64,000 bases of DNA. It comes from an uncultured Acetatifactor sp. Its GTDB lineage: Bacteria; Bacillota; Clostridia; Lachnospirales; Lachnospiraceae. The notes below the pieces were generated by a model that was given only the letters and a program-made list of their open reading frames with translations, searched no databases and was not told the DNA's origin. The stretch lies in assembly GCA_910586435.1 (NCBI GenBank), contig CAJUGT010000003.1, positions 1,782 through 65,781 on the forward strand, given 5' to 3'. Positions 1,772 through 64,000 of this stretch are shown here, in pieces; the stretch's first letter is position 1; each line of letters starts with the position of its first letter. Made by a program: the position numbers and the translations under genes.

Positions 1772-2177
1772 GATTCATTCCTCCTATTCCAGTTCCCGCC
1801 TGCGGGAACTTGTTCCGGTCTCTGCACTTCGGTGCCCCTATGAAGGAAGGGTTATTCAGCCGCTTTTGCGTCTGAAAACCCTTCTCTGTGTCTGAAAGAC
1901 ACATTGCACCCCCGTTTCAAGACTGTTTTTAAATTTCCTCTTGACATTTCTTAGCTGGACTATTGAGTATAAAGTTATCCCCTAATATATTGATAAATTT
2001 TGCCTGCTGGTATTATAGCATATGCTGTTTTAGATTACAAGAAATATGGGATGGTTACTGTCCAGACCTGACAGCTCCAAGTGGCTTGCGGGTACTTTGT
2101 TTCTCCAGGGGACGGCGCAGGAATCATTTAAACAAATGAAAAAGGTTGAATTTACATTGTAATTCCCAGGAGCAAGT

Positions 2178-2469
2178 GGTATAATGTTGACACAGAAAGG
2201 CATTGTGTCAACTTCTGATTCCAAATGCGCTGAAGCGCATGAAATCATGGTATCATGTTGACACTCAAGGGCATTGTGTCAACTTCTGATTCCAAATGCG
2301 CTGAAGCGCATGAAATCATGGTATCATGTTGACACTCAAGGGCATTGTGTCAACTGTTGATTCCATGTGCGCTAAGGCGCGCAAAATCAGGGTATAATGT
2401 TGACACTGAAGGGCATTGTGTCAACTTCTGATTCCAAATGCGCTGAAGCGCACAGGATTATGGTATAAT
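2178..2469 (+). repeat. 4 x 71-bp head-to-tail 'A' units plus a closing GGTATAAT (modular structured repeat family)
   Basis: Units start at 2178, 2249, 2320 and 2391, with period exactly 71. Each is GGTAnnATG-TTGACAC-N11-GTGTCAAC-TTCTGATTCCAAA-TGCGC-TGAA-GCGCA-TGAAATCAT. Confidence 0.9.
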
Positions 2470-2646
2470 ATGTCCATATTCAGGGCGGGAATCGGCCGAA
2501 GGGCCATTAGCTGCCAGTGTCAAATCCACATGCTCCAAAACCAGAGCCATACACAAATGCCGGAACAAAAAGAAATGACCCATGTATAAAAATGTTCGGT
2601 GAAAAAATTCAGATAACCTACACACATATATAATAATATCAAAAAT

Positions 2647-4437
2647 ATGAATTCCAATAATAAAAAATATAATTCTTTTCAGATACCCAAAAGGACAGAG
2701 CATACGGGAGTTCCTACACCTCCCGGAAAGAAAGCTTCCTCCCTTCCCCAGGGACAGATGGACCTCTCCGACTCTTATTATGAGATAGAATACGACTCAT
2801 GTCCCATGCCAGGAGTGGGAAAATATGTATTAAAATCTCAGAAAATAGAGCAGCCCAAAAAGGACCAGGTCAGGGAATTATTCAACCAAATGAGAGATAT
2901 TGCCAGAGAAGACAGGTATCTTAATTTTCGTACCTCCGGTTTCTATGACAAAAAACTCCAGCAAGATAAGTCCCGGATATTTTATAAACAGGGAATATTT
3001 ATGCAGGACTTTGAGGACACCTATGAGCGGCAGGTGCCTTTTTCTTCCTATTTTCCCGATTATCAGATGATGGGATACGAACAGCTCCGAACCTATTTTA
3101 CATGGCGCGCGAAAGTTCGGTCAGGAGACATTGCTGACACTTCCCTTTCCTATGCCTTCCTGTATTTCTACGAACTGCTGAATAACATTGGTGTGAAAGA
3201 CGCACAGGAAGGCATGAATGCAATCATGTCTTTTTGGAAGACTTTTCGTGTATATCACCAGGAAATTGATAAGTATGTCATACACTGGCTGAAAGATTAC
3301 CATATATACTATGATTTACCCTGGTCTTTTAAGGATTTTATCAAAGAAAATAATCTGGGGGTACATTATCCGAAAGTGATAAATCCTGACGATAATTTTG
3401 ATTTTTATTGTTCCTTATCCAAATATGACATACGAAAATCGAAATTCTACAATGATGATACCCTTTGGTTGATTCGGGATTGTTTTGACCATGTGATAAA
3501 GAGATTACGGGATTCTTTGTCCGAGCAGAAGATATTTTTGGAGGATTTACTGTTTCGATCTCCCAAAAACATGACACCCTGGACTCCCTTCCAGAACGCT
3601 TTGTTCTATCCCGGTCTCAGACACAGAGACAAACGGGTAATACTTTCAGAAAAGGAAATCTATGTCCGCAGCCAGAATACATGGAAATTCCACACAACCA
3701 TTGCCACAGAAAGCGGAAAACAGTTCATTGGTTATATAGTAAAGCAGATGGAATCCGTCTTAAGGACGGCCATGAAATACAAGTACAAACTTTCCGTCAA
3801 AAGCGATGCTCTCAGCCAGGACACTGCAAATACATTGTCACAGGCAGGAATCTCCATAGAGAAACTGGTTACGGAAGCCACCATGGAATTCTACCGTGAA
3901 GCCACCAGGACTGTGGTAAAAGTAAATCCGGGCGCATTGGACAAAATCCGTCAGGAAGCATTGATGACACAGGAGAGACTGATTGTGCCGGAAGATGTCC
4001 AGGAAGAACCCTTCGTAGCGAAATCAGAGGACAGTTCTCCCGTCGCCCCTTCTCCAATGGCTGAACAGGACTTTTCCCGTCCTGAACCATCCACTGCCAG
4101 CCTGGATTCTCTTTCTGACCCCTGGGAATGTCTCAGAAACGCTTTCACTTCTCTGGAACAGGATGCTATCATCCATTTGTGGATGAATCAGGAAAATATT
4201 ACTCCATGTACGGAGAGCCCTAAGGCACAAATATGTGACTTGAAGCAGTTTGCTCAAAATAATAATATTATGTTGGAAGTGCTTATAGACGGAATCAATG
4301 AAAAAGCCGTGGACTGCATCGGTGACAGCCTTTTAGACGGAGAATTTGTCTTTTTTGAGGATTATATAGAACAAATAAAAGGAATGGTGAATCAGTTATG
4401 GCAGGAAAAGTACCCACAAGAATTGCCAATATTTTAA
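2647..4437 (+). CDS. sngA: TerB-N/TerB-C domain protein (Shango SngA-like)
   Basis: TerB-N-like signature YFPDYQMMGYEQLRTYFTWRAKVRSG...SYAFLYFYELLNNIG. It is the first gene of a tightly packed three-gene operon. The start is uncertain because there is no clear SD. Confidence 0.65.
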   Translation: MNSNNKKYNSFQIPKRTEHTGVPTPPGKKASSLPQGQMDLSDSYYEIEYDSCPMPGVGKYVLKSQKIEQPKKDQVRELFNQMRDIAREDRYLNFRTSGFYDKKLQQDKSRIFYKQGIFMQDFEDTYERQVPFSSYFPDYQMMGYEQLRTYFTWRAKVRSGDIADTSLSYAFLYFYELLNNIGVKDAQEGMNAIMSFWKTFRVYHQEIDKYVIHWLKDYHIYYDLPWSFKDFIKENNLGVHYPKVINPDDNFDFYCSLSKYDIRKSKFYNDDTLWLIRDCFDHVIKRLRDSLSEQKIFLEDLLFRSPKNMTPWTPFQNALFYPGLRHRDKRVILSEKEIYVRSQNTWKFHTTIATESGKQFIGYIVKQMESVLRTAMKYKYKLSVKSDALSQDTANTLSQAGISIEKLVTEATMEFYREATRTVVKVNPGALDKIRQEALMTQERLIVPEDVQEEPFVAKSEDSSPVAPSPMAEQDFSRPEPSTASLDSLSDPWECLRNAFTSLEQDAIIHLWMNQENITPCTESPKAQICDLKQFAQNNNIMLEVLIDGINEKAVDCIGDSLLDGEFVFFEDYIEQIKGMVNQLWQEKYPQELPIF

Positions 4438-18022: not shown

Positions 18023-18508
18023 CTATATAATTTCTACTCTCTCAAAATATTTCATTAATATATCAGCGCAGTTTTCAATTCCCAGCCTGGAAGTATCCAA
18101 TATCATATGGTAATTATTCACATCCCCCCAAACCTTTCCTGTGTTCTGATAATAATATTCCGAACGTGCCTTATCGTTTTTCTCCAACAGGGCTTTTGCC
18201 TCTTCATAGGATAGTTTTTCTTTCTTCATAATCCTTTGAATGCGATCTTCCTTGTCGGCACAGACATAGATATGAAATACATTGGTCTGATCCTTCAGAA
18301 TCTCAGAAGCACATCGTCCCAAAATAATACAGGAATTTGCTGCCAGGTTCCTGATGACTTCCGCCTCATCCACATAACTGTCTCCTTCCAGCTCATGTTC
18401 AATATAAGCTCTGTCATACACCGGTATTTCAAGCTTTTGGGACAATTCTCCCGCTATCATACTTGCACCGGTTCCAAACCTACGGCTCATTGTAATCACC
18501 AGATTCAT
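18023..18508 (-). CDS. cytidylate kinase-like family protein
   Basis: N-terminus MNLVITMSRRFGTGASMIAGELSQKLEIPVYDR is typical of the Cytidylate_kin2 family. GGGAGG RBS. Confidence 0.7.
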   Translation of the reverse strand: MNLVITMSRRFGTGASMIAGELSQKLEIPVYDRAYIEHELEGDSYVDEAEVIRNLAANSCIILGRCASEILKDQTNVFHIYVCADKEDRIQRIMKKEKLSYEEAKALLEKNDKARSEYYYQNTGKVWGDVNNYHMILDTSRLGIENCADILMKYFERVEII

Positions 18509-18587
18509 AATTCATCCTCCCGTACCGATAAGGATTTCATGCTTTGACAATTTCCATCAAATTGCCCTGCCAATACCCCTTATCTTT

Positions 18588-18841
18588 CCATGGCCATTCG
18601 GCCGGTTCCTGCCTTCCATAATTTCGTGTGTTTCAACACACTTGGAATCAGAAGTTGACATAACGTCTTTTGTGTCAACATTGTACCATGATTTCCGCAA
18701 TGCTTCGGGCAGAGACCCGAAAAACCTTCTGTTTTTCGGGTTCGCTTCGCTTGCCAAATGTCCAAAGAAGCATCTGCTCAAACAAGTTTGGCAGTTGCTT
18801 CTTTGGACGCTTGGCTCTGCCCTTTGCGGACATTGTACCAT
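18588..18841 (-). repeat. composite B + A + C modules of the structured repeat family (minus orientation)
   Basis: The reverse complement of 18690-18841 aligns almost base-for-base with 58078-58233. 18616-18689 is an A unit. 18588-18613 resembles 2484-2510. Confidence 0.9.
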
Positions 18842-18969
18842 AGTTTTACCCTTGTTACAAGTCTGTGAAAACGGTAAATGCAGGCAAAGAAATTTCCCGT
18901 ACCCCGAATCACCTTGCGGCGGCACCGAGTGAACAGTAATTTTTTGTTACGTTCACTTAGCATGACAAA

Positions 18970-19533
18970 TCATATTTGAAATAAACTGCCCACCGCCAAT
19001 TTTACCACACCACAGCAGACCATTACCAGAATCGGATTTTTCTTCCAGATACGAAGCACCAGAAAAGCAGCCAGAAATATGCCGCACTCCAGCCAGTGTA
19101 TATTGGCAAAACTTACTTCCGCCCCATCAAAGGCCACAAGTTTTAAAATGGACAGACCTGCTGCCGCAATCAAGGCCACAACCGCAGGCCGAAGACTTCC
19201 CAATACGCTTTGCAGCGCAGACATTTGCTTATAACGATAGTAAATAAAAAATAACAGGGACACTATCAGACAGGAAGGCAGGATACAGCCAATGGTGGCT
19301 ATCACCGCCCCAGGAATTCCGGCGATGCGAATGCCCACGAAAGTTGCAGAGTTTACCGCAATGGGTCCGGGAGTCATTTCCGCAATGGTTATCAAATCGG
19401 TAAACTCACTCATGGTAAGCCAACCATGTTTTGTTACCACCTGTGCCTGTATCAGGGGCATGGCTGCATACCCTCCGCCAATGCTGAACATCCCCACCTG
19501 AATAAAACTTAACAATAACTCTAAATAAATCAT
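18970..19533 (-). CDS. chromate transporter (CHR family, short half-size protein)
   Basis: FSIGGGYAAMPLIQ...EMTPGPIAVNSATFVG motifs. Confidence 0.8.
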   Translation of the reverse strand: MIYLELLLSFIQVGMFSIGGGYAAMPLIQAQVVTKHGWLTMSEFTDLITIAEMTPGPIAVNSATFVGIRIAGIPGAVIATIGCILPSCLIVSLLFFIYYRYKQMSALQSVLGSLRPAVVALIAAAGLSILKLVAFDGAEVSFANIHWLECGIFLAAFLVLRIWKKNPILVMVCCGVVKLAVGSLFQI

Positions 19534-19659: not shown

Positions 19660-20250
19660 TCATGATTTCTTTTTCCGTTTCCACACTTCCATACAGATAC
19701 CTGCCAATGCCGCCGCAAGAATAATGTATATCACATTCACTTCCCATACAAAGGTTGCCAGAAACGCTGTAATCATCACAATTAAATGTATTATATTACG
19801 GTTTTTCAAAACTCCCGACCCAAGACCGCATACCACATCCAGAATCACGGCAGCCACGCCTGCCTGCATTCCTTTCAGCAACAGAGCAATATATGTATTG
19901 GTTGCAAAAGCGGCATAAAAAAAGGAAATTACAGATAACAACACCATGGGTGGAATAATAGTTCCAATCACCGCAATTAACATGCCTGGAAAACCACCCA
20001 TTCTCCACCCCACCAATATGGCCGCATTCACGGCAATTGCCCCCGGAGAAGACTGGGCCAATGCGGCCAAATCCAGCATTTCATCTTCCTCAATCCAATG
20101 ATACTCATCTACAAATTTCTTCTTCATAAAGGTAATGATTACAAAACCTCCCCCAAAAGTAAACGCGCTGATATACAAAGTACTGAAAAATAATTGAAGT
20201 AATATTTTCTTCTTATTCTCTTCCATCTCTATCTTCTCCTGCTCTGCCAT
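19660..20250 (-). CDS. chromate transporter (CHR family, partner half)
   Basis: FTFGGGFVIITFM...QSSPGAIAVNAAILVG. Paired with 18970..19533, as is usual for split ChrA. Confidence 0.8.
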   Translation of the reverse strand: MAEQEKIEMEENKKKILLQLFFSTLYISAFTFGGGFVIITFMKKKFVDEYHWIEEDEMLDLAALAQSSPGAIAVNAAILVGWRMGGFPGMLIAVIGTIIPPMVLLSVISFFYAAFATNTYIALLLKGMQAGVAAVILDVVCGLGSGVLKNRNIIHLIVMITAFLATFVWEVNVIYIILAAALAGICMEVWKRKKKS

Positions 20251-20327
20251 TCTTTTATGATACCATCTGACTGTAATTCAAACTGTTATTTCTACCCTTT
20301 TCACTCTGAGGCCCTTCCACCCAATAT

Positions 20328-20550
20328 ATTTTACCATGATTTCGTGCGCTTTAGCGCACTTGGAATCAGAAGTTGACACAATGCCCTTCTGTGTCAACAT
20401 TTTACCATAATTTTGTGTGCTTCAGCACACATGGAATCAGAAGTTGACACAATGCCCTTCTGTGTCAACATTTTACCATAATTTTGTGTGCTTCAGCACA
20501 CATGGAATCAGAAGTTGACACAATGCCCTTCTGTGTCAACATTTTACCCT
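20328..20550 (-). repeat. 3 x 71-bp 'A' units (minus orientation) upstream of the chromate transporter genes
   Basis: TACC junctions at 20332, 20403, 20474 and 20545 (period 71). Units 2 and 3 are identical. Confidence 0.9.
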
Positions 20551-20875
20551 GTTGGCGGAACCATGCTCTATCAAACTTTCCTGTCATAATCTCTCCCTGA
20601 ACCATTCCAAATAATATTTCTCTAAGTATACTGCGTATTACCCGCTCTGTCAATTTTCACTGGATTGTATCTCTTAGATAAGGAACTTTCTTTGCTCATT
20701 TTACCTCGACACCTAAGCCCCACCTGTCCGGCAGCCAGCCGGATAAGGAATACAGTGCGGCTTTCTATCTTAATTGTTCCATGGACAAAACCGAAACATA
20801 ATAGTATAATGAAATTATTCAAAATTCTGGTTTATGAGGATACACAGCTTAACAAAGCGTGTCGAAAGGAGTATT

Positions 20876-21388: not shown

Positions 21389-21449
21389 GAGCATGTTTGA
21401 AAATTGCTTTCTGACAGCTGTGCTTACAAAGCAATTTTCAAACATGCTC
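21389..21449. repeat. perfect 22-bp-stem hairpin downstream of the HIT gene
   Basis: GAGCATGTTTGAAAATTGCTTT-N17-AAAGCAATTTTCAAACATGCTC. No T-run follows, so it is not a classic terminator. Confidence 0.7.
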
Positions 21450-21455
21450 TAGTAC

Positions 21456-21607
21456 TCCATCCGGTCAGTAATCGTACTTTCAGTACCGCCTATTTTGCCA
21501 TCTACTGCGTTGTCGTCAGCAGGCGTGTCCACCGCATCGTCTCCTTCCTCCGCCTTGCAGACTGCCAAAATATTTGGCACTGGCAGTGCAGTTACTGACC
21601 GGATGGA
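21456..21607. repeat. ~150-bp element bounded by ~22-bp terminal inverted repeats (MITE-like)
   Basis: AGTACTCCATCCGGTCAGTAAT ... GTTACTGACCGGATGGAGCACT. The same termini form the hairpin at 1102-1149. Confidence 0.65.
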
Positions 21608-21695
21608 GCACTAGGCACTGGAAAGGGTTTCTTGCTCTCTTGCGCAAAACCCCGAGACAGCAATGCGCCAAACCCAATAGAAAGGAACCCGCCTT

Positions 21696-32367: not shown

Positions 32368-32486
32368 TTCTCCTTCCCATTGATAAGATAATAAGTTATG
32401 AGCCCTCGTGTGCATAAAAAAAGAAGTCAGCCAGCCTGGTAACTTCCGTAGAAAATACATTGCTACACCACAGTAAATGTATGTGT

Positions 32487-32585
32487 CTCAAATCCTATGA
32501 TCCCTACGTTGGCATTACCCAAATCAGGTTATCGGTCGAAGGTCATACCTTCCTCTCAGCCTGTCATACAAGCTCCCGTTTCTTC
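32487..32585 (-). promoter_or_regulatory. TPP (THI-box) riboswitch
   Basis: The minus strand reads GGGAGC..GCUGAGAGG..ACCUUCGACCGAUAACCUGAUUUGGGUAAUGCCAACGUAGGGA, matching the conserved THI-box core. It lies ~120 nt upstream of thiM. Confidence 0.85.
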
Positions 32586-32856
32586 AATTTTGTTTATTAT
32601 ACACCTTTTCCAGAGGCTTAGCAAGTTATGACGCTACCTATTTTTTTTTCAGCTGCCTCCTGCTTCTCACGCAGCCTTGACGAGTATTGTCCATGCCTGA
32701 CAATTATGGCTGAACTGGTGTTCCAGGTTGTAGCCATAGTTTTATATTAATCTGCTGCGAATTAAGTTTAAGTCAGAATATGTTGATTGTATATTAGAAG
32801 GGAAAATGTTATACTCATATATGAAATCTTTCTATTCTATTGGAAAGTGAGGGAAA

Positions 32857-34717: not shown

Positions 34718-36550
34718 TTATGTATAATACTGGGCCTGAGCATCCCACAATTCCCTGTACAGTCCTTCCTGATGCTCTAATTCTTCATGTTTCCCCCTTT
34801 GTATTACATCACCTCCATCAAATACCAGAATATCTTCACAGAACCGGCAGGAAGCAAGCCTATGGGATATATAAATGGCTGTCTTATTGCCCACCATCTT
34901 ATCAAAGCCAGCATATACTTCACATTCTGATTCCGGGTCCAGGGCAGCGGTAGGTTCATCCATAATGACAAAGGGAGCATTTTTATATATGGCACGGGCA
35001 ATGGCAATTTTCTGCTTCTCACCACCGGAAAAAGTCACACCTTTGTCATCAAATTCTTTGCTGATATTCGTGGAAAGCCCTTTTTCCAGATTTCCATAAC
35101 ACTCCCCAAGACCAGCTCTGTTCAGTGCGTCCACCGCACGCTCTTCTTCCACTTTAGTCCCTGCTGCCACATTTTCTCCCAACGGAAACGCAAATACCTG
35201 AAAATCCTGAAAAACGACGGAAAATAATTGACAATATTCTGTATAATCATATTTTCTAATGTCAATTCCATTTACTTTAATGCATCCCTCAGTCACATCA
35301 TACAGACGGCACAAAAGTTTGATAAATGTAGTCTTGCCCGATCCGTTTCTGCCCACTATGGCCATTCTCTCTCCAATGACAAATTTCAGATTCAAATCCT
35401 TTATCACATATGTTTCACTCCCGGGATACTTAAATGAAACATGATCAAATTCTACGGAGAACTTGCCATCCTGACGTTTTTCCATGGGTATGGTGCCTTC
35501 GTGTTTTCTCTGTGGCAGACCCATATATTTCACATAATCCCCGGCAAATGCACAATTTCCGCTAAGCCAGCTCAATTGATAAGTAGCCCTTCCTATGGCA
35601 TCCATAAATTTCAAAATACTTGCCGCGTAAGTCACCACACCTCCAATGCTGATGATTCCGGCGCAGGCCAGCAAACCGGCAAACACATATACAAGAAAAC
35701 CAGTGACAGCGGAAACAGATTGTTCCGTAAATATATCCAACATGATATAATGTGCCATTTTATTCATAGTTCTCTTTACATTGGACTCAATGCGCCGAAA
35801 TTCCTTCTCATATAAATTCTGCTGTTTACATATTCTTAAATCTTTCTGTTTCTCATATCCCGAAAGAATTTCAAGATAATATTTGTTTCTGGTTTCATCG
35901 TTTGACATTTCTTTCCTGGCATCCGCTACTTTTTTACTGAAATACCTTCCCATTTGAAATTCTGTTATGACCAGAAAAATGACCACCACAAAAAGAAGTA
36001 TCGACATGAGCCAGGAACCCATAAACCCCTCGGACAGAGAGTGACTGCCCCGGATAAACATGGGAACCACCACAAAAAACGCCATTAAAACCGTAGTGGC
36101 CGCAGTCATAATTTTATTCAGAACACTTAGAGTAATTGCCGTCAGGCTCCACCCTCCAAATTTTTCGATTCTCTGCCGCATTTCGTGAATTCCCACATCT
36201 TCCAGGTACTCATAATCCATGGACATGCTCTTTTGGTTCATGGGCTGTGCCTGAATCTCCTGCATATACTCAAGCTTTCGATTAAAAAACATGGTGAGAA
36301 TGCCTTCCATAACGGACATTAGAAAGATTCCACCCACTCCCATGGCTGCGTACCGCAACAATTCCCCAATACTTTCTCCCGCATATACTGCGTCCACCAG
36401 CATTCCTGTCAAAATTACGGCAATAAAAGGACGTGTCCCCATAAATATGGATAAACATACCATGCTGATTAATACATCTTTATGCTTCTGAACCAGGTTT
36501 CCCAAAAGGGCAACTATATTTTTCCAATCTTTTCTACTCATCAAATACAC
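34718..36550 (-). CDS. ABC exporter, fused permease/ATP-binding protein
   Basis: Walker A GRNGSGKTT, signature FSGGEKQK, Walker B FVIMDEPTAALD. The N-terminal half has 6 TM segments. Confidence 0.85.
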   Translation of the reverse strand: MYLMSRKDWKNIVALLGNLVQKHKDVLISMVCLSIFMGTRPFIAVILTGMLVDAVYAGESIGELLRYAAMGVGGIFLMSVMEGILTMFFNRKLEYMQEIQAQPMNQKSMSMDYEYLEDVGIHEMRQRIEKFGGWSLTAITLSVLNKIMTAATTVLMAFFVVVPMFIRGSHSLSEGFMGSWLMSILLFVVVIFLVITEFQMGRYFSKKVADARKEMSNDETRNKYYLEILSGYEKQKDLRICKQQNLYEKEFRRIESNVKRTMNKMAHYIMLDIFTEQSVSAVTGFLVYVFAGLLACAGIISIGGVVTYAASILKFMDAIGRATYQLSWLSGNCAFAGDYVKYMGLPQRKHEGTIPMEKRQDGKFSVEFDHVSFKYPGSETYVIKDLNLKFVIGERMAIVGRNGSGKTTFIKLLCRLYDVTEGCIKVNGIDIRKYDYTEYCQLFSVVFQDFQVFAFPLGENVAAGTKVEEERAVDALNRAGLGECYGNLEKGLSTNISKEFDDKGVTFSGGEKQKIAIARAIYKNAPFVIMDEPTAALDPESECEVYAGFDKMVGNKTAIYISHRLASCRFCEDILVFDGGDVIQRGKHEELEHQEGLYRELWDAQAQYYT

Positions 36551-38450
36551 CTCTCTCTTCCCCTGTTTTCACCTCATAAATGTCACCCATCAGCTGACTT
36601 TTTATCTTTCTTTCCTTTTCTTCCTGGTAATACTGGCTCTGGACTTGAAATAACTCCGCATATCTGGTCTTACCTGCAAGCAGCTCCTCATGCGTGCCCT
36701 CCTCAATGATTTTCCCATGCTCTAAAAGCAATATTCTGTCACAAAACCTGGTACTGGACAAACGATGAGAGATATAAACACTGGTCTTATGCTCCATGGA
36801 TTTCCCATAATTTAAGTATAATTCATTCTCCGCAATGGGGTCCAATGCCGCCGTGGGCTCATCCAATATTACCAAAGGTGTATTCTGATATAGCGTCCTT
36901 GCAAATAACATTTTCTGCTTTTCGCCGCCGGAGAAATCAGTGGAACCCTGATTGACTTCCCTGACCAATAATGACCCTCCCTTTTTGGGAAGTTTTTCAT
37001 AAACAGTTTCAAAATGAGACAATTCCAATGCTTTTTTCAGGTTTTCTCTGTCTATTTCTTCCAGATTTTGTCCTGTCAGATTTTCATCCAGACTTAATGC
37101 CATCATGGTAGAATCCTGAAACAATACGGATATTAGACTATAATATTCCTCCCTGCTAAATTCCTGTATGGGAATGTCGTTTAATAAAATATCACCTTCT
37201 GTAGGATGATAAAAGCCACACATCAATTTTACAAATGTGGTCTTTCCGGCGCCATTTAATCCAATAAGCGCTATTTTTTCTCCTGGTTTGATAACCACAT
37301 TTATATTTTTCAACGTTGGTTTCTCATTGCCCGGATAGGTAAAAGAAACATTTCTGAATTCAAGCTTTACAGGATTTTGTTTTATTTGATTCAGTTTATC
37401 TTTTCCAATCCCTTCTCCTCTGTTCCATCGGTCTTTTGTCTCCAAAAATTCCCTCATATAACTGATGGAAGCACTGGTATTATTAAATCCCATTACCTGT
37501 CTCAGGACATCTTCAAAATAAAGCGCAAAACCATTCACCAAACCAATATAAAATACAAACTCCGCAACGGTAATCCTTCCATTCACTAATAAATGAATTA
37601 AAAATCCATAAGTTGCTCCATTCATTAAAAGCTGCAAGAAAGCATGGAAAATATTTCGGAACAGATACCAGTCATGTATGATACCATACATTTTCCCCAT
37701 CTCCTTCAGTGAATCATCATATTTTTCAAGAAACCAATCCAGAAGATGATAGATGCGAATATCCTTTCCCGCTGCGCTGTCCGTTGCCTGGGCGGTAATA
37801 TAACTTTCCTTTCTGGCAGAGAGCTGCAATTTCTCATAATACTCACTATGCTTCTTCCTTGCAATAGAAAGAAGCCACAGACTTATCCCCAGGGAAAACA
37901 TGATAATTGCCAGAAGAAGTATGCTTTTTCCTGCCAGAAGAATTCCGTAAAGCATCACACCCACCATGGAAGAAAGGAACATGGGAAATGAAATAACCGC
38001 ATTTGAAACACCCTGCCCAAAACGTGCCACACGCCAGGCATTTCCGGATATTTTCTGAAACTCCTCATCTTCCAGACAGTCATAGTCCACATCCATTATT
38101 TTATGTACAAATTTACCGGCATAATGATATTGAATAAACTGCCCTATATTACCGCAATATTCAATGAGCATGTTGTATACACAATTACATATCCACATCA
38201 TGACCGCAATGAAAGCCATATGAAATACCAAATGAGGAATCGTAATCTGCGCAGTCAAATCCTCCACCAGTTTAGAGGGCAGATAAGTTCCCAACAGAGA
38301 ACCAAAAGCCCCTGGCACCACTGCGAAAATCTGTGCCCAGAACAGCTTCCTGTCCCACTCTTTGGTTGCTTTCATGTTATAAAGAAAGTTACTGATAAGC
38401 CCATATTTTCTTCTTGACCTATCATCAAACACCTTGTTCATATACAGCAT
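36534..38450 (-). CDS. ABC exporter, fused permease/ATP-binding protein (heterodimer partner)
   Basis: Walker A GLNGAGKTT, signature FSGGEKQK, Walker B LVILDEPTAALD. Start at MLYMNK after AGGAGG. Confidence 0.85.
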   Translation of the reverse strand: MLYMNKVFDDRSRRKYGLISNFLYNMKATKEWDRKLFWAQIFAVVPGAFGSLLGTYLPSKLVEDLTAQITIPHLVFHMAFIAVMMWICNCVYNMLIEYCGNIGQFIQYHYAGKFVHKIMDVDYDCLEDEEFQKISGNAWRVARFGQGVSNAVISFPMFLSSMVGVMLYGILLAGKSILLLAIIMFSLGISLWLLSIARKKHSEYYEKLQLSARKESYITAQATDSAAGKDIRIYHLLDWFLEKYDDSLKEMGKMYGIIHDWYLFRNIFHAFLQLLMNGATYGFLIHLLVNGRITVAEFVFYIGLVNGFALYFEDVLRQVMGFNNTSASISYMREFLETKDRWNRGEGIGKDKLNQIKQNPVKLEFRNVSFTYPGNEKPTLKNINVVIKPGEKIALIGLNGAGKTTFVKLMCGFYHPTEGDILLNDIPIQEFSREEYYSLISVLFQDSTMMALSLDENLTGQNLEEIDRENLKKALELSHFETVYEKLPKKGGSLLVREVNQGSTDFSGGEKQKMLFARTLYQNTPLVILDEPTAALDPIAENELYLNYGKSMEHKTSVYISHRLSSTRFCDRILLLEHGKIIEEGTHEELLAGKTRYAELFQVQSQYYQEEKERKIKSQLMGDIYEVKTGEERGVFDE

Positions 38451-38574
38451 AATATTTCCTCCTGCCCAGTTCCGCAACTTGTCCGGTCCGTTGCTGTTTT
38501 TTCATATCCCATTTGACACTACCATGCAAAATTACCTTGCACCATTCGCCAAATGGATGCTGGCACATCCGCTT

Positions 38575-38655
38575 GGCTCATTGCACGCAGGAATCAAAAG
38601 TTGACATAAGGTCCTGCTGTGCCAAGCTTGTAACGTGATTGCTCTGAAATCATGG
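38575..38655 (-). repeat. degenerate/partial copy of the A unit of the structured repeat family
   Basis: GCACGCAGGAATCAAAAGTTGACATAAGG..GTGCCAAG followed by CTGAAATCATGGTATGGG. Confidence 0.55.
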
Positions 38656-38791
38656 TATGGGATGCCCATTCGGTCTTTTTATCAACTTTATTTCACAGTA
38701 TAGCATTTTTTTGTGCTCTTCCGAAAATTTTGCACGAATTGTATTTCACCACGCACGAATAGCAAATGGAACTAAAAGGTGCTGCATGTAC

Positions 38792-58077: not shown

Positions 58078-58296
58078 ATGGTATAATGTCCGCAAAGGGC
58101 AGAGCCAAGCGTCCAAAGACGCAACTGCCAAACTTGTTTGAGCAGATGCGTCTTTGGACATTTGGCAAGCGAAGCGAACCCGAAAAACAGAAGGTTTTTC
58201 GGGTCTCTGCCCGAAGAATCGCAGAAATCATGGAATAAAGTTGACACAGAAATGCATTGTGTCAACTTCTGATTCCAAGTGCGTTTCAGCGCAAGA
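58078..58296 (+). repeat. B module (~150 nt) plus one A unit of the structured repeat family
   Basis: Starts 5 nt after the mnmG stop with ATGGTATAATG. Near-identical to the reverse complement of 18690-18841. The A unit begins at GTTGACAC (58240). Confidence 0.9.
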
Positions 58297-58339
58297 AATA
58301 AATATGTATTAATATTCTTATCTTGAGGAGGGTATATTG

Positions 58340-59260
58340 ATGAGGTTGGTTACACGTTCTGATTTTGATGGTTTGGCATGTGGGGCATTGCTTCTGGAAG
58401 CCGGAATTATTGACAGTTGGAAGTTTGCGCATCCCAAGGATTTACAGGATGGTCTGGTAGAAGTAAATGAAAATGACTGTCTGGCCAATGTGCCGTATGT
58501 GGAAGGGTGCGGATTGTGGTTTGATCATCATTCCAGTGAACATGAAAGGTTGGAGCTTCAGGGAAAATACAAAGGCGAGAGCCGTATCACCCCTTCCTGC
58601 GCAAGGATTATTTATGAATATTATGGCGGCAGAGAACGTTTTCCTCAATTTGATGAAATGATGGAAGCGGTTGACAAGGTGGATTCCGGTAATTTGACTA
58701 TTGAAGAAGTTATGAATCCTGAAGGGTGGATTCTTGTGGGGTTTTTGATGGATCCAAGAACGGGATTGGGCAGGTGGAGACAGTTTTCCATTTCTAATTA
58801 TCAGTTGATGGAGAAGCTTATGCATGCCTGCTGTACAATGAATACGGAAGAAATTCTGGCATTGTCCGATGTGCAGGAACGTATTGAGGTATATCTTGAA
58901 CAGACGGAAAAATTCAAAAAAATGGTTGCGGATCATACAAAAGTAAACGGAAATGTGATTATCTCTGATTTAAGGGGTGTGGAACCTATTTATACTGGGA
59001 ATAGATTTATGATTTACAGTATGTATCCGGAACAGAATATCTCTGTCTGGATTGTGAGCGGAAGGGGCGGAAAAGGCTGTTCTGCGGCAGTGGGATATAG
59101 TATTCTGAATAAGACGTCGGATGTCAATGTGGGCAGTTTAATGCTGAAGTATAACGGGGGCGGACATAAAAAGGTCGGTACCTGCCAATTTACGGATGAA
59201 AATATGGAAACGGAACTTCCTAAAATGTTGGAAGAACTGTGTTCAATGGCAAATACATAA
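58340..59260 (+). CDS. DHH-family phosphoesterase-like protein
   Basis: DHH-type motifs TRSDFDGLACG and WFDHHSSE. GAGGAGGG RBS 7 nt before the ATG at 58340. Confidence 0.6.
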   Translation: MRLVTRSDFDGLACGALLLEAGIIDSWKFAHPKDLQDGLVEVNENDCLANVPYVEGCGLWFDHHSSEHERLELQGKYKGESRITPSCARIIYEYYGGRERFPQFDEMMEAVDKVDSGNLTIEEVMNPEGWILVGFLMDPRTGLGRWRQFSISNYQLMEKLMHACCTMNTEEILALSDVQERIEVYLEQTEKFKKMVADHTKVNGNVIISDLRGVEPIYTGNRFMIYSMYPEQNISVWIVSGRGGKGCSAAVGYSILNKTSDVNVGSLMLKYNGGGHKKVGTCQFTDENMETELPKMLEELCSMANT

Positions 59261-63686: not shown

Positions 63687-63725
63687 TTGCTTAGTGGTAT
63701 TCGGTAGTATGTTCGGCAGTTAACT

Positions 63726-64000
63726 ATGTGCTTTAAAATTCTGGATTCATACCTGTTCTGTGGCAGCCAGTTCAGCAAGTCCTGCAAATGAACCATATGC
63801 TTTAAAAGTCTGGATTTTTACTTGTTCTGTGGTAGTCAGTTCAGCAAGCCCCGCAAATGAACCATATGTTTCAAAAGTCTGGATTTTTACTTGTTCTGTG
63901 GTAGTCAGTTCAGCAAGCCCCGCAAATGAACCATATGTTTCAAAAGTCTGGATTTTTACTTGTTCTGTGGTAGTCAGTTCAGCAAGCCCCGCAGATGAAC
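63726..64000. repeat. 69-bp tandem repeat, at least 4 copies, running off the window end
   Basis: Unit boundaries at 63726, 63797, 63866 and 63935. Units 3 and 4 are identical, and unit 1 carries 2 extra nt. Confidence 0.9.

Follow-up and report, generated by a model that had tools for sequence, protein, structure and literature searches.

A candidate family of mosaic intergenic repeats built around an extended -10-like box in Acetatifactor-clade Lachnospiraceae

The stretch of DNA analysed here (the window) comprises 64,000 nucleotides from an uncultured Acetatifactor sp. (GenBank assembly GCA_910586435.1, contig CAJUGT010000003.1). At 20.4 kb it carries, upstream of a chromate transporter gene (chrA), a tandem array of a 71-bp intergenic repeat that we call the A unit. 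Tandem Repeats Finder called the array at 20328-20548 with a period of 71, 3.1 copies, 96% matches and no indels; this call and direct reading of the letters agree with the period, coordinates and minus orientation that an earlier note, made from the sequence alone, had assigned to the three units. Read in the sense orientation, a unit consists of a box (TGGTAnAAT), a 27-bp palindrome (hairpin 1), the linker TTCTGATTCCA, a second hairpin (hairpin 2) and an A/T-rich spacer, GAAATYA, and one extra box closes every array. From upstream to downstream, the features at this locus are as follows.

20625 to 20653, minus strand: canonical promoter-like site TTGACA-17-TATACT, 5' of the array and co-oriented with it (consensus scan only)
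20541 to 20549, minus strand: leftmost (upstream-most) box, GGGTAAAAT, hexamer TAAAAT (direct reading)
20479 to 20540, minus strand: body of unit 1, 62 nt, with hairpin 1 (20540-20514), linker TTCTGATTCCA, hairpin 2 (TGTGTGC-TGAA-GCACACA) and spacer AAATTA
20470 to 20478, minus strand: internal box TGGTAAAAT
20408 to 20469, minus strand: body of unit 2, same sequence as unit 1
20399 to 20407, minus strand: internal box TGGTAAAAT
20337 to 20398, minus strand: body of unit 3, with hairpin 1 (20398-20372), linker (20371-20361), hairpin 2 (AGTGCGC-TAAA-GCGCACG, 20360-20343) and spacer AAATCA (20342-20337)
20328 to 20336, minus strand: terminal box TGGTAAAAT, 78 nt 5' of the ATG at 20250
20257 to 20267, minus strand: additional box-like site GATGGTATCAT between the array and chrA (direct reading)
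19660 to 20226, minus strand: the downstream gene, a 188-aa chromate transporter (PF02417) and the first of two

The earlier note had described a split chromate transporter beginning at 20250. The 78-nt gap between the array and that ATG is correct, but public gene calls place the start of chrA at 20226, 3' of an AGGAGA ribosome-binding site, and an exact-protein look-up matched the 188-aa form and found no match for the 196-aa form. Nor is the transporter split; it is an ordinary gene pair of about 188 aa each (PF02417), neither of them broken. A transcript from the TTGACA-17-TATACT site would traverse the whole array. Many of the short metagenomic contigs that carry chrA start inside the array, at contig ends (L123-L130).

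The palindrome pattern GTTGACAC-N11-GTGTCAAC has eight exact matches in the window, against 0.16 expected by chance. These fall in four units at 2186-2425 (plus strand), three at 20372-20540 and one at 58240 (plus strand), and an nhmmer profile added a ninth A unit at 18.6 kb with a 1-nt deletion and a decayed unit at 38.6 kb. All small-hairpin forms quoted in the earlier note are present in the window by direct reading, as are its junction hexamers TATAAT, TATCAT, TACAAT and TAAAAT, each after TGG. Beyond the window, an exact-pattern scan of representative genomes returned 41 loci in 15 assemblies, all from Acetatifactor or unclassified Lachnospiraceae and mostly from mouse gut; a single metagenome-assembled genome contributes at least 14 of these loci. 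Together with the window this makes 71 full units, grouped into 49 arrays, of which 34 are single units, 10 are doublets, three are triplets and two are quadruplets. One locus, L004, shows a variant unit with a 98-bp period at 19-392, in which the segment CTTCTGATT(C/T)CATGTG is doubled within each unit. The A-unit sequence was not found in the literature searched, and a keyword search on intergenic tandem repeats and promoters in Lachnospiraceae returned nothing.

Conservation and covariation were counted over 66 distinct unit copies. The junction consensus is Y-R-T-G-G-T-A-n-A-A-T, with T1 of the hexamer kept in 64 copies, A2 in 65, A4 in 62, A5 in all 66 and T6 in 64, while position 3 (T29/A21/C16/G0) is the sole hexamer position that varies freely. 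The TGG before the hexamer is conserved in 55, 62 and 63 copies at its three bases, and position -16 is A in 47 copies and G in 17, a pyrimidine occurring in two. The Gram-positive extended -10 consensus is TRTGNTATAAT, with starts 6-8 nt downstream (PMC5036317); the box matches TRTGnTATAAT base for base, including the purine at -16 and the tolerated variation at position 3. An ordinary extended -10 promoter is, in contrast, single-copy and locus-specific, whereas here the box lies inside a duplicating 71-bp unit and the 62 nt that follow it are conserved across loci and species. The junction logo shows a preference for TAnnnT, and the pattern that the earlier note had ascribed to a functional extended -10 element is borne out for TG, T1, A2, A4, A5 and T6, for the purine at -16 (64/66) and for the free position 3, but is weaker at the terminal boxes, which decay. 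TAnnnT is kept in 46 of 48 leftmost boxes and in 34 of 48 terminal boxes (p = 0.002), which places the constraint mainly on the box that precedes a unit.

The flanks of the arrays were also informative. In unique flanking sequence, 9 of 46 arrays have a TTG exactly 17 nt 5' of their leftmost hexamer, where 0.7 per position would be expected (p = 4e-8). Examples in the window are TTGTAA at 2157, 17 nt upstream of the first box of the 2.2-kb array, TTGAAG at 58 kb and TTGTAA at 18.8 kb. For the DHH-like gene that follows the 58-kb element we compared 69 orthologous loci from other species, where TRTGnTAnAnT occurs 23-147 nt upstream of the gene in 32 of the 69 as against eight on the opposite strand, and the repeat unit at none. 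Because of this -35 spacing and these orthologous upstream motifs, we take the repeat box to be, by its sequence, an ordinary promoter motif of the Acetatifactor clade.

The two hairpins appear to be held under different kinds of constraint. In the alignment 94.6% of cells at paired positions can pair, against 22-55% when the partners are slid, and RNAalifold predicted hairpins 1 and 2 each without guidance. Hairpin 2 shows changes on both sides at five of its seven pairs (for example GC43/AU11/GU7 at one pair, CG53/UA9 at another and GCACGC/GCGTGC at locus L030), in keeping with the covariation of the small hairpin reported from the window alone. The arms of hairpin 1 (GTTGACAC-N11-GTGTCAAC) are near-invariant around a variable 11-nt spacer, the 11-nt linker TTCTGATTCCA is nearly invariant too, and the sole compensatory variant of hairpin 1 is a symmetric double change, GTCGAAAC/GTTTCGAC, at two loci of one genome. 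Because arms and linker are invariant whereas hairpin 2 covaries, sequence itself seems to count for hairpin 1 and the linker, and pairing alone for hairpin 2. Counts of G-U against A-C show no strand preference in either hairpin. Every wobble cell of the outer helix is a G-U when read in sense (70 vs 0), and no pair there has changed on both sides. Relative to shuffled sequence the array folds with z = -6.2 in sense and z = -7.4 in antisense.

Across the family the arrays lie 5' of genes. By a crude open reading frame (ORF) call, the gene that follows is co-oriented in 37 of 42 arrays; re-inspection of the exceptions indicated that at least two more, L014 and L030, likewise precede a co-oriented ORF. 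Between tandem gene pairs the element is co-oriented 17:1, and 17-22 arrays lie in divergent regions against 0-4 in convergent ones. The distance from terminal box to gene start is mostly below 250 nt. This placement is the signature of a 5'-of-gene element, neither 3' in the manner of REP sequences nor purely replication-oriented. The downstream genes are diverse, with 36 proteins matching 49 different Pfam families, and since they are unrelated an operator of a single regulon is ruled out. The sole excess among them is of two-component-system genes (5/36; L004, L011, L016, L018 and L035), encoding OmpR-type regulators, histidine kinases and hybrid kinases, which may amount to a mild enrichment. 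We found no associated transposase or recombinase, the only protein cluster present in more than three of the 41 loci being two-component-system proteins, and the idea of an associated transposase was dropped.

Although the A unit had been described by itself, it is one module of a larger mosaic repeat family, as the remaining elements of the window illustrate.

2177 to 2469, plus strand: sister array of four units and a terminal box (Tandem Repeats Finder 2177-2452, 3.9 copies), before a TerB_N-domain gene (2647-4437)
18689 to 18840, minus strand: box TGGTACAAT (18840-18832) followed by the 143 nt of module B; TTGTAA lies 17 nt upstream of this box
18609 to 18688, minus strand: single A unit, box TGGTACAAT and body, with decayed terminal box TGGAAGGCA, before a cytidylate-kinase-like gene (18023-18508)
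38570 to 38670, minus strand: decayed D-A composite with degenerate box CACGTTACAAG, a palindrome with three mismatches and linker TTTTGATTCC; 5' intergenic, 3' of a TGCTATACT promoter-like site and 5' of the gene at 36534-38477 (minus strand)
58079 to 58239, plus strand: box TGGTATAAT (TTGAAG 17 nt upstream), module B (58088-58230) and decayed box TGGAATAAA; the element begins no more than about 10 nt past the mnmG stop codon
58240 to 58310, plus strand: body of a single A unit and degenerate terminal box TATGTATTAAT, 27 nt before the DHH-like gene (58337-59260)

The box serves as the joint of at least four kinds of module (A, B, C and D), whose order varies (B-A in the window, A-B at L034), and modules A, B and D have a common end, GRAATCATGG-TAnAAT. 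The direct repeats that flank modules are 9-14 nt long and have their variable bases in common. Units within one array share a single orientation; their ends, GTTGACAC... and ...CGAAATCA, are not mutual inverted copies, and terminal inverted repeats are absent. In 25 of 29 arrays the base n agrees between the left and the right box, where permutation gives a mean of 10.1, and in one genome the two boxes match at 13 of 13 although n differs between loci; as the boxes share the variable base, they have been duplicated or homogenised locally. The two copies of module B in the window, 58088-58230 (plus) and 18689-18831 (minus), are 96.5% identical over 143 nt, always box-flanked, and fold into a tight Y shape (z = -8.2). 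Weaker copies of module B occur at L032, L006 and L034. Module C is a 70-nt repeat (ACACTCAAGAATCCAGCCGCTGCGCG...), 93-97% identical between loci and lying after or before A arrays, at L001, L008, L010, L022, L023, L026, L027, L037 and L038, all from assembly MGBC107221. In module D, ..CGGCCGAAGGGCCAT.. and ..ATACCATGATT..GGAATCATGG precede a box; the module is seen both upstream and downstream of A units, and occurs in the window at 2470-2600 (plus) and about 18618-18560 (minus) and at L005, L013, L035 and L036.

Conspecific contigs differ in these elements. The chrA array has two units in some and three in others, an exact 71-bp difference (contig L134 is without one of the identical units 1 and 2); its leftmost box reads GGATAAAAT in conspecific contigs against GGGTAAAAT in the window, and the box-like site at 20257-20267 reads AAGGTATCAT instead of GATGGTATCAT. 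At 2.2 kb most conspecific contigs hold one unit, against four in the window. Most of them also lack 152 nt at 58 kb, namely module B and its 3' box. The junction falls exactly between TATAAT and GTTGACAC, and the resident box and its -35 are the same in the empty allele; the first 45 nt of the adjacent A unit differ between the filled and empty alleles too, which is the mark of a gene-conversion tract rather than of a clean insertion. The 18.6-kb unit has three hairpin-2 versions in three strains, one with a mismatch and one identical to the version in another array, and this movement of hairpin variants between copies as blocks looks like gene conversion. No empty site for module A was found among the conspecific contigs compared. 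At the orthologous chrA and DHH loci of other species module A is absent, and the intergenic DNA there is too diverged or non-syntenic to align.

Synteny breaks among conspecific contigs sit at box edges, and the A/B repeats mark rearrangement breakpoints between these contigs. Between L136 (1290-1740) and window positions 18480-18990, and likewise between L146 and L142, the neighbouring genes differ and homology begins or ends exactly at a box edge; in L146 the TerB_N/BrxC-like gene block after the terminal box is exchanged for other genes.

We favour, at roughly even odds (about 0.5), a reading in which these repeats form a mosaic interspersed-repeat family built on a sigma-A extended -10 element, whose arrays act as tandem promoters and leaders and change copy number in unit steps; the A unit itself would most likely be a self-duplicating promoter/leader cassette. 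The 71-bp unit is module A of a mosaic family of Acetatifactor-clade Lachnospiraceae organised around (T/C)(A/G)TGGTAnAAT, the consensus extended -10 of the clade. From the conservation of the box before each unit we infer that it is a functional promoter -10, so that an array would be a row of tandem promoters before a gene, and the unit bodies would form the initial transcribed region and 5' leader. The 27-bp palindrome begins 1 nt past the hexamer and would span about -6 to +21 of a start from that box. Near-invariance of the palindrome and linker implies a binding partner, and the two together would most simply be a protein binding site that overlaps the start site. Hairpin 2 would act as a structure formed by RNA or by single-stranded DNA. 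From the strain comparison, arrays lengthen and shorten in exact 71-bp steps as units or boxes recombine, and modules appear to be copied between loci through gene conversion that ends at the box.

Several observations weigh against this reading. Placement 5' of genes and the -35 spacing would be equally expected if the element targets pre-existing promoters, and internal boxes have no -35, nothing acceptable being present within the unit at 16-18 nt, although an extended -10 promoter can dispense with this element. Hairpin 1 and the linker TTCTGATTCCA are more invariant than the junction. The decay of terminal boxes, which are dead at two of the four window loci, indicates that not all junctions are under promoter-type constraint. 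TGnTAnAAT occurs at 38 sites in the window against 15 expected, and 23 of the 38 read TGATAnAAT, perhaps the extended -10 form that this genome usually employs. The repeats have TGG instead, which makes their box a version of the motif specific to the family. Transcription that begins 7 nt past the hexamer would cut off the left arm of hairpin 1; together with the 34 of 49 arrays that hold a single unit, this argues that hairpin 1 would act in DNA or in read-through RNA and not in RNA from its own box. The GTCGAAAC/GTTTCGAC variant fits base pairing better than a fixed protein site. Hairpin 2 variants travel as blocks, so that the covarying cells are not all independent events, and the census leans to exact core-pattern matches and to 8-kb loci.

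The main rival, which we regard as unlikely, is a selfish mosaic repeat with no promoter role of its own. The box would then be a joint or target, the element would home to existing -10 boxes and double them, and only the resident leftmost box would fire, with the units as passengers in 5' leaders. The agreement of n between left and right boxes (25/29 arrays) suits this account, as do the exact siting of module B, together with its 3' box, behind the TATAAT of a pre-existing full promoter that is unchanged in the empty allele, the decay of terminal boxes, the breakpoints at box edges, the single joint common to several unrelated modules and the freely polymorphic copy number. Against it, the 41 loci show neither terminal inverted repeats nor an associated transposase or recombinase, the filled B allele differs within the adjacent A unit, which points to gene conversion and not clean insertion, and the contigs compared hold no module A empty site. 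The strong cross-species conservation of the core is likewise unexpected for passengers.

A promoter-nested copy-and-paste mechanism seems to us doubtful. Modules would land directly after the -10 hexamer and regenerate the box, each event thereby doubling a promoter, and a dedicated protein acting on GTTGACAC-N11-GTGTCAAC-TTCTGATTCCA would either mobilise the modules or repress genome-wide at the start site. If this were true, change in copy number would be a built-in means of tuning the expression of unrelated genes.

A cis-acting structured leader RNA (a stabiliser, processing site or protein platform) transcribed from an upstream promoter, with the box as a single-stranded linker, is a weaker alternative that we consider improbable. 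The independent prediction of both hairpins and the covariation of hairpin 2 speak for it, as do the folding of the sense array well beyond shuffled sequence (z = -6.2), the canonical promoter upstream of the 20.4-kb array, the exclusively sense G-U wobbles of the outer helix (70 vs 0) and the tight Y-shaped fold of module B (z = -8.2). The antisense strand, however, folds as well (z = -7.4), the G-U and A-C counts of hairpins 1 and 2 are strand-neutral, and the outer helix has no pair changed on both sides. No Rfam family matches the arrays, a linker does not explain the -10-type conservation and the -35 spacing, and 34 of 49 arrays are single units directly after a box.

The remaining alternative, weaker again and highly improbable, is a terminator/insulator cassette in which hairpin 1 and UUCUGAUU stop upstream read-through and the box restarts transcription for the downstream gene: hairpin 1 with its tail is flagged as terminator-like in all three 20.4-kb units and the first 2.2-kb unit, 17 arrays lie between co-directional genes and the 58-kb element lies within about 10 nt of the mnmG stop codon, but hairpin 1 with TTCTGATT passes a permissive terminator scan with a stem of just 4/10 G-C and an interrupted U run, as for a weak terminator, equally many arrays lie in divergent regions with nothing to terminate, and tandem terminators before a gene would silence it unless the boxes fire.

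Other candidates for the A unit were set aside. Rfam 15 gave no match to the arrays at the gathering threshold (array matches had E >= 0.15 and scores far below threshold) and ARAGORN found no tRNA or tmRNA gene at the arrays, so neither a tRNA-like gene nor a known RNA family was obtained. A hammerhead-like core (CUGAU ... stem ... GAAA) has misfitting core bases, and the Rfam ribozyme models gave no score. A short peptide gene would use a 23-codon frame that opens at the ATG of TATA-ATG and closes at a TAA in the following box. Against it, the period is not divisible by 3, some units carry single-base indels (the 18.6-kb unit, L009 and L019), a ribosome-binding site is missing, and the swapped hairpin of L030 would exchange Cys and His. 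CsrA-type GGA loops fail because many copies have no GGA in the loop. By direct reading, a sigma-54 interpretation of TGGTAT-N4-TTGAC is one off in spacing and without the GC, and an antisense promoter from the TTGACA of the palindrome has no acceptable partner element at 16-18 nt. No match to phage or plasmid origin was found in the viral contigs or plasmid collections searched.

If the boxes fire, as the tandem-promoter reading proposes, the modules would be portable promoters whose number varies between strains of one gut species, providing simple heritable variation in the expression of transporters, defence genes and signalling systems in Lachnospiraceae, a family with hardly any promoter-level data. 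Genetic tools for hard-to-engineer anaerobes could then draw on the repeats as a compact promoter and leader already validated by nature. Array copy number could supply tandem-repeat markers for strain typing, and the A repeats are breakpoints of both recombination and assembly, short-read assemblies breaking there.

The window contains further repeats and one known RNA. A distinct palindromic repeat with arms CTAGT.CTCCATCCGGTCAGTAA.. and ..TTACTGACCGGATGGAGCACTAG lies at 1095-1160 and 21449-21614, in both cases intergenic, after the gene at 420-1052 and after the HIT gene; it has the look of a terminator or of an independent family of hairpin-type repeats. At 63722-64000 a coding 69-bp tandem repeat specifies, on the minus strand, the C-terminal 23-aa repeats (FAGLAELTTTEQVKIQTFETYGS) of a protein that extends past the window end. 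The sole Rfam match of the window at gathering threshold is a TPP riboswitch at 32484-32589 (minus strand; 61.4 bits against a threshold of 54.3).

Judged by sequence, the family resembles BOX, BIME and Correia elements and yet lacks their defining features: it has no terminal inverted repeats, does not lie 3' of genes, shows no transposase nearby in the loci compared and shares no sequence similarity with them. Compared with miniature inverted-repeat transposable elements (MITEs), which make target-site duplications of fixed length and leave a single target copy at empty sites, it lacks terminal inverted repeats, the empty site of module B retains one box and the neighbouring A unit differs. 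Enterobacterial BIMEs are likewise mosaics of a few palindromic modules and linker motifs, tandem and intergenic. BIMEs and REPs, which are linked to RAYT transposases, occur in alternating orientation and mostly at gene 3' ends or where genes converge, whereas A-family modules keep one orientation and lie 5' of genes. With respect to the REP/RAYT (REPIN) type, short imperfect palindromes marked by a conserved 5' tetranucleotide, A arrays are 5' and co-oriented, 0-4 of them are in convergent regions, and the 41 loci yielded no transposase cluster. Mycobacterial MIRU repeats are 50-80 bp direct tandem repeats, intergenic and transcription-oriented, whose copy number differs between strains in exact unit steps; the A arrays are similar to such variable-number tandem-repeat (VNTR) loci in being direct, tandem and intergenic and in these exact steps. 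MIRUs differ in being tied to overlapping short ORFs in operons and in having no -10 box or conserved hairpins.

Neisseria Correia elements (CREE) carry 26-nt terminal inverted repeats, a TA target duplication and an IHF site. The A family shows none of these; its promoter box is a complete TRTGGTAnAAT direct repeat and its units are tandem. According to the published account (PMC2649163), CREE are, like the A family, small non-coding repeats; they can, as proposed for the A family, supply promoter sequence, in their case at the ends, and thereby alter the expression of adjacent genes, and they are also transcribed into structured RNA. The ends of Streptococcus BOX elements (boxA-boxB(n)-boxC), boxA and boxC, carry IS-like terminal inverted repeats (PMC3049150), in contrast to the A family, which has no inverted termini; A-family modules are joined by direct copies of an extended -10 box, and the arrays, which share no sequence similarity with BOX, lie strongly 5' of and co-oriented with a gene. 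In other respects BOX elements are alike: they are small, dispersed, intergenic modular repeats with predicted stem-loops and further module types in related species, one module occurs in tandem with strain-variable copy number, and effects on the expression of neighbouring genes have been reported for them (PMC3049150).

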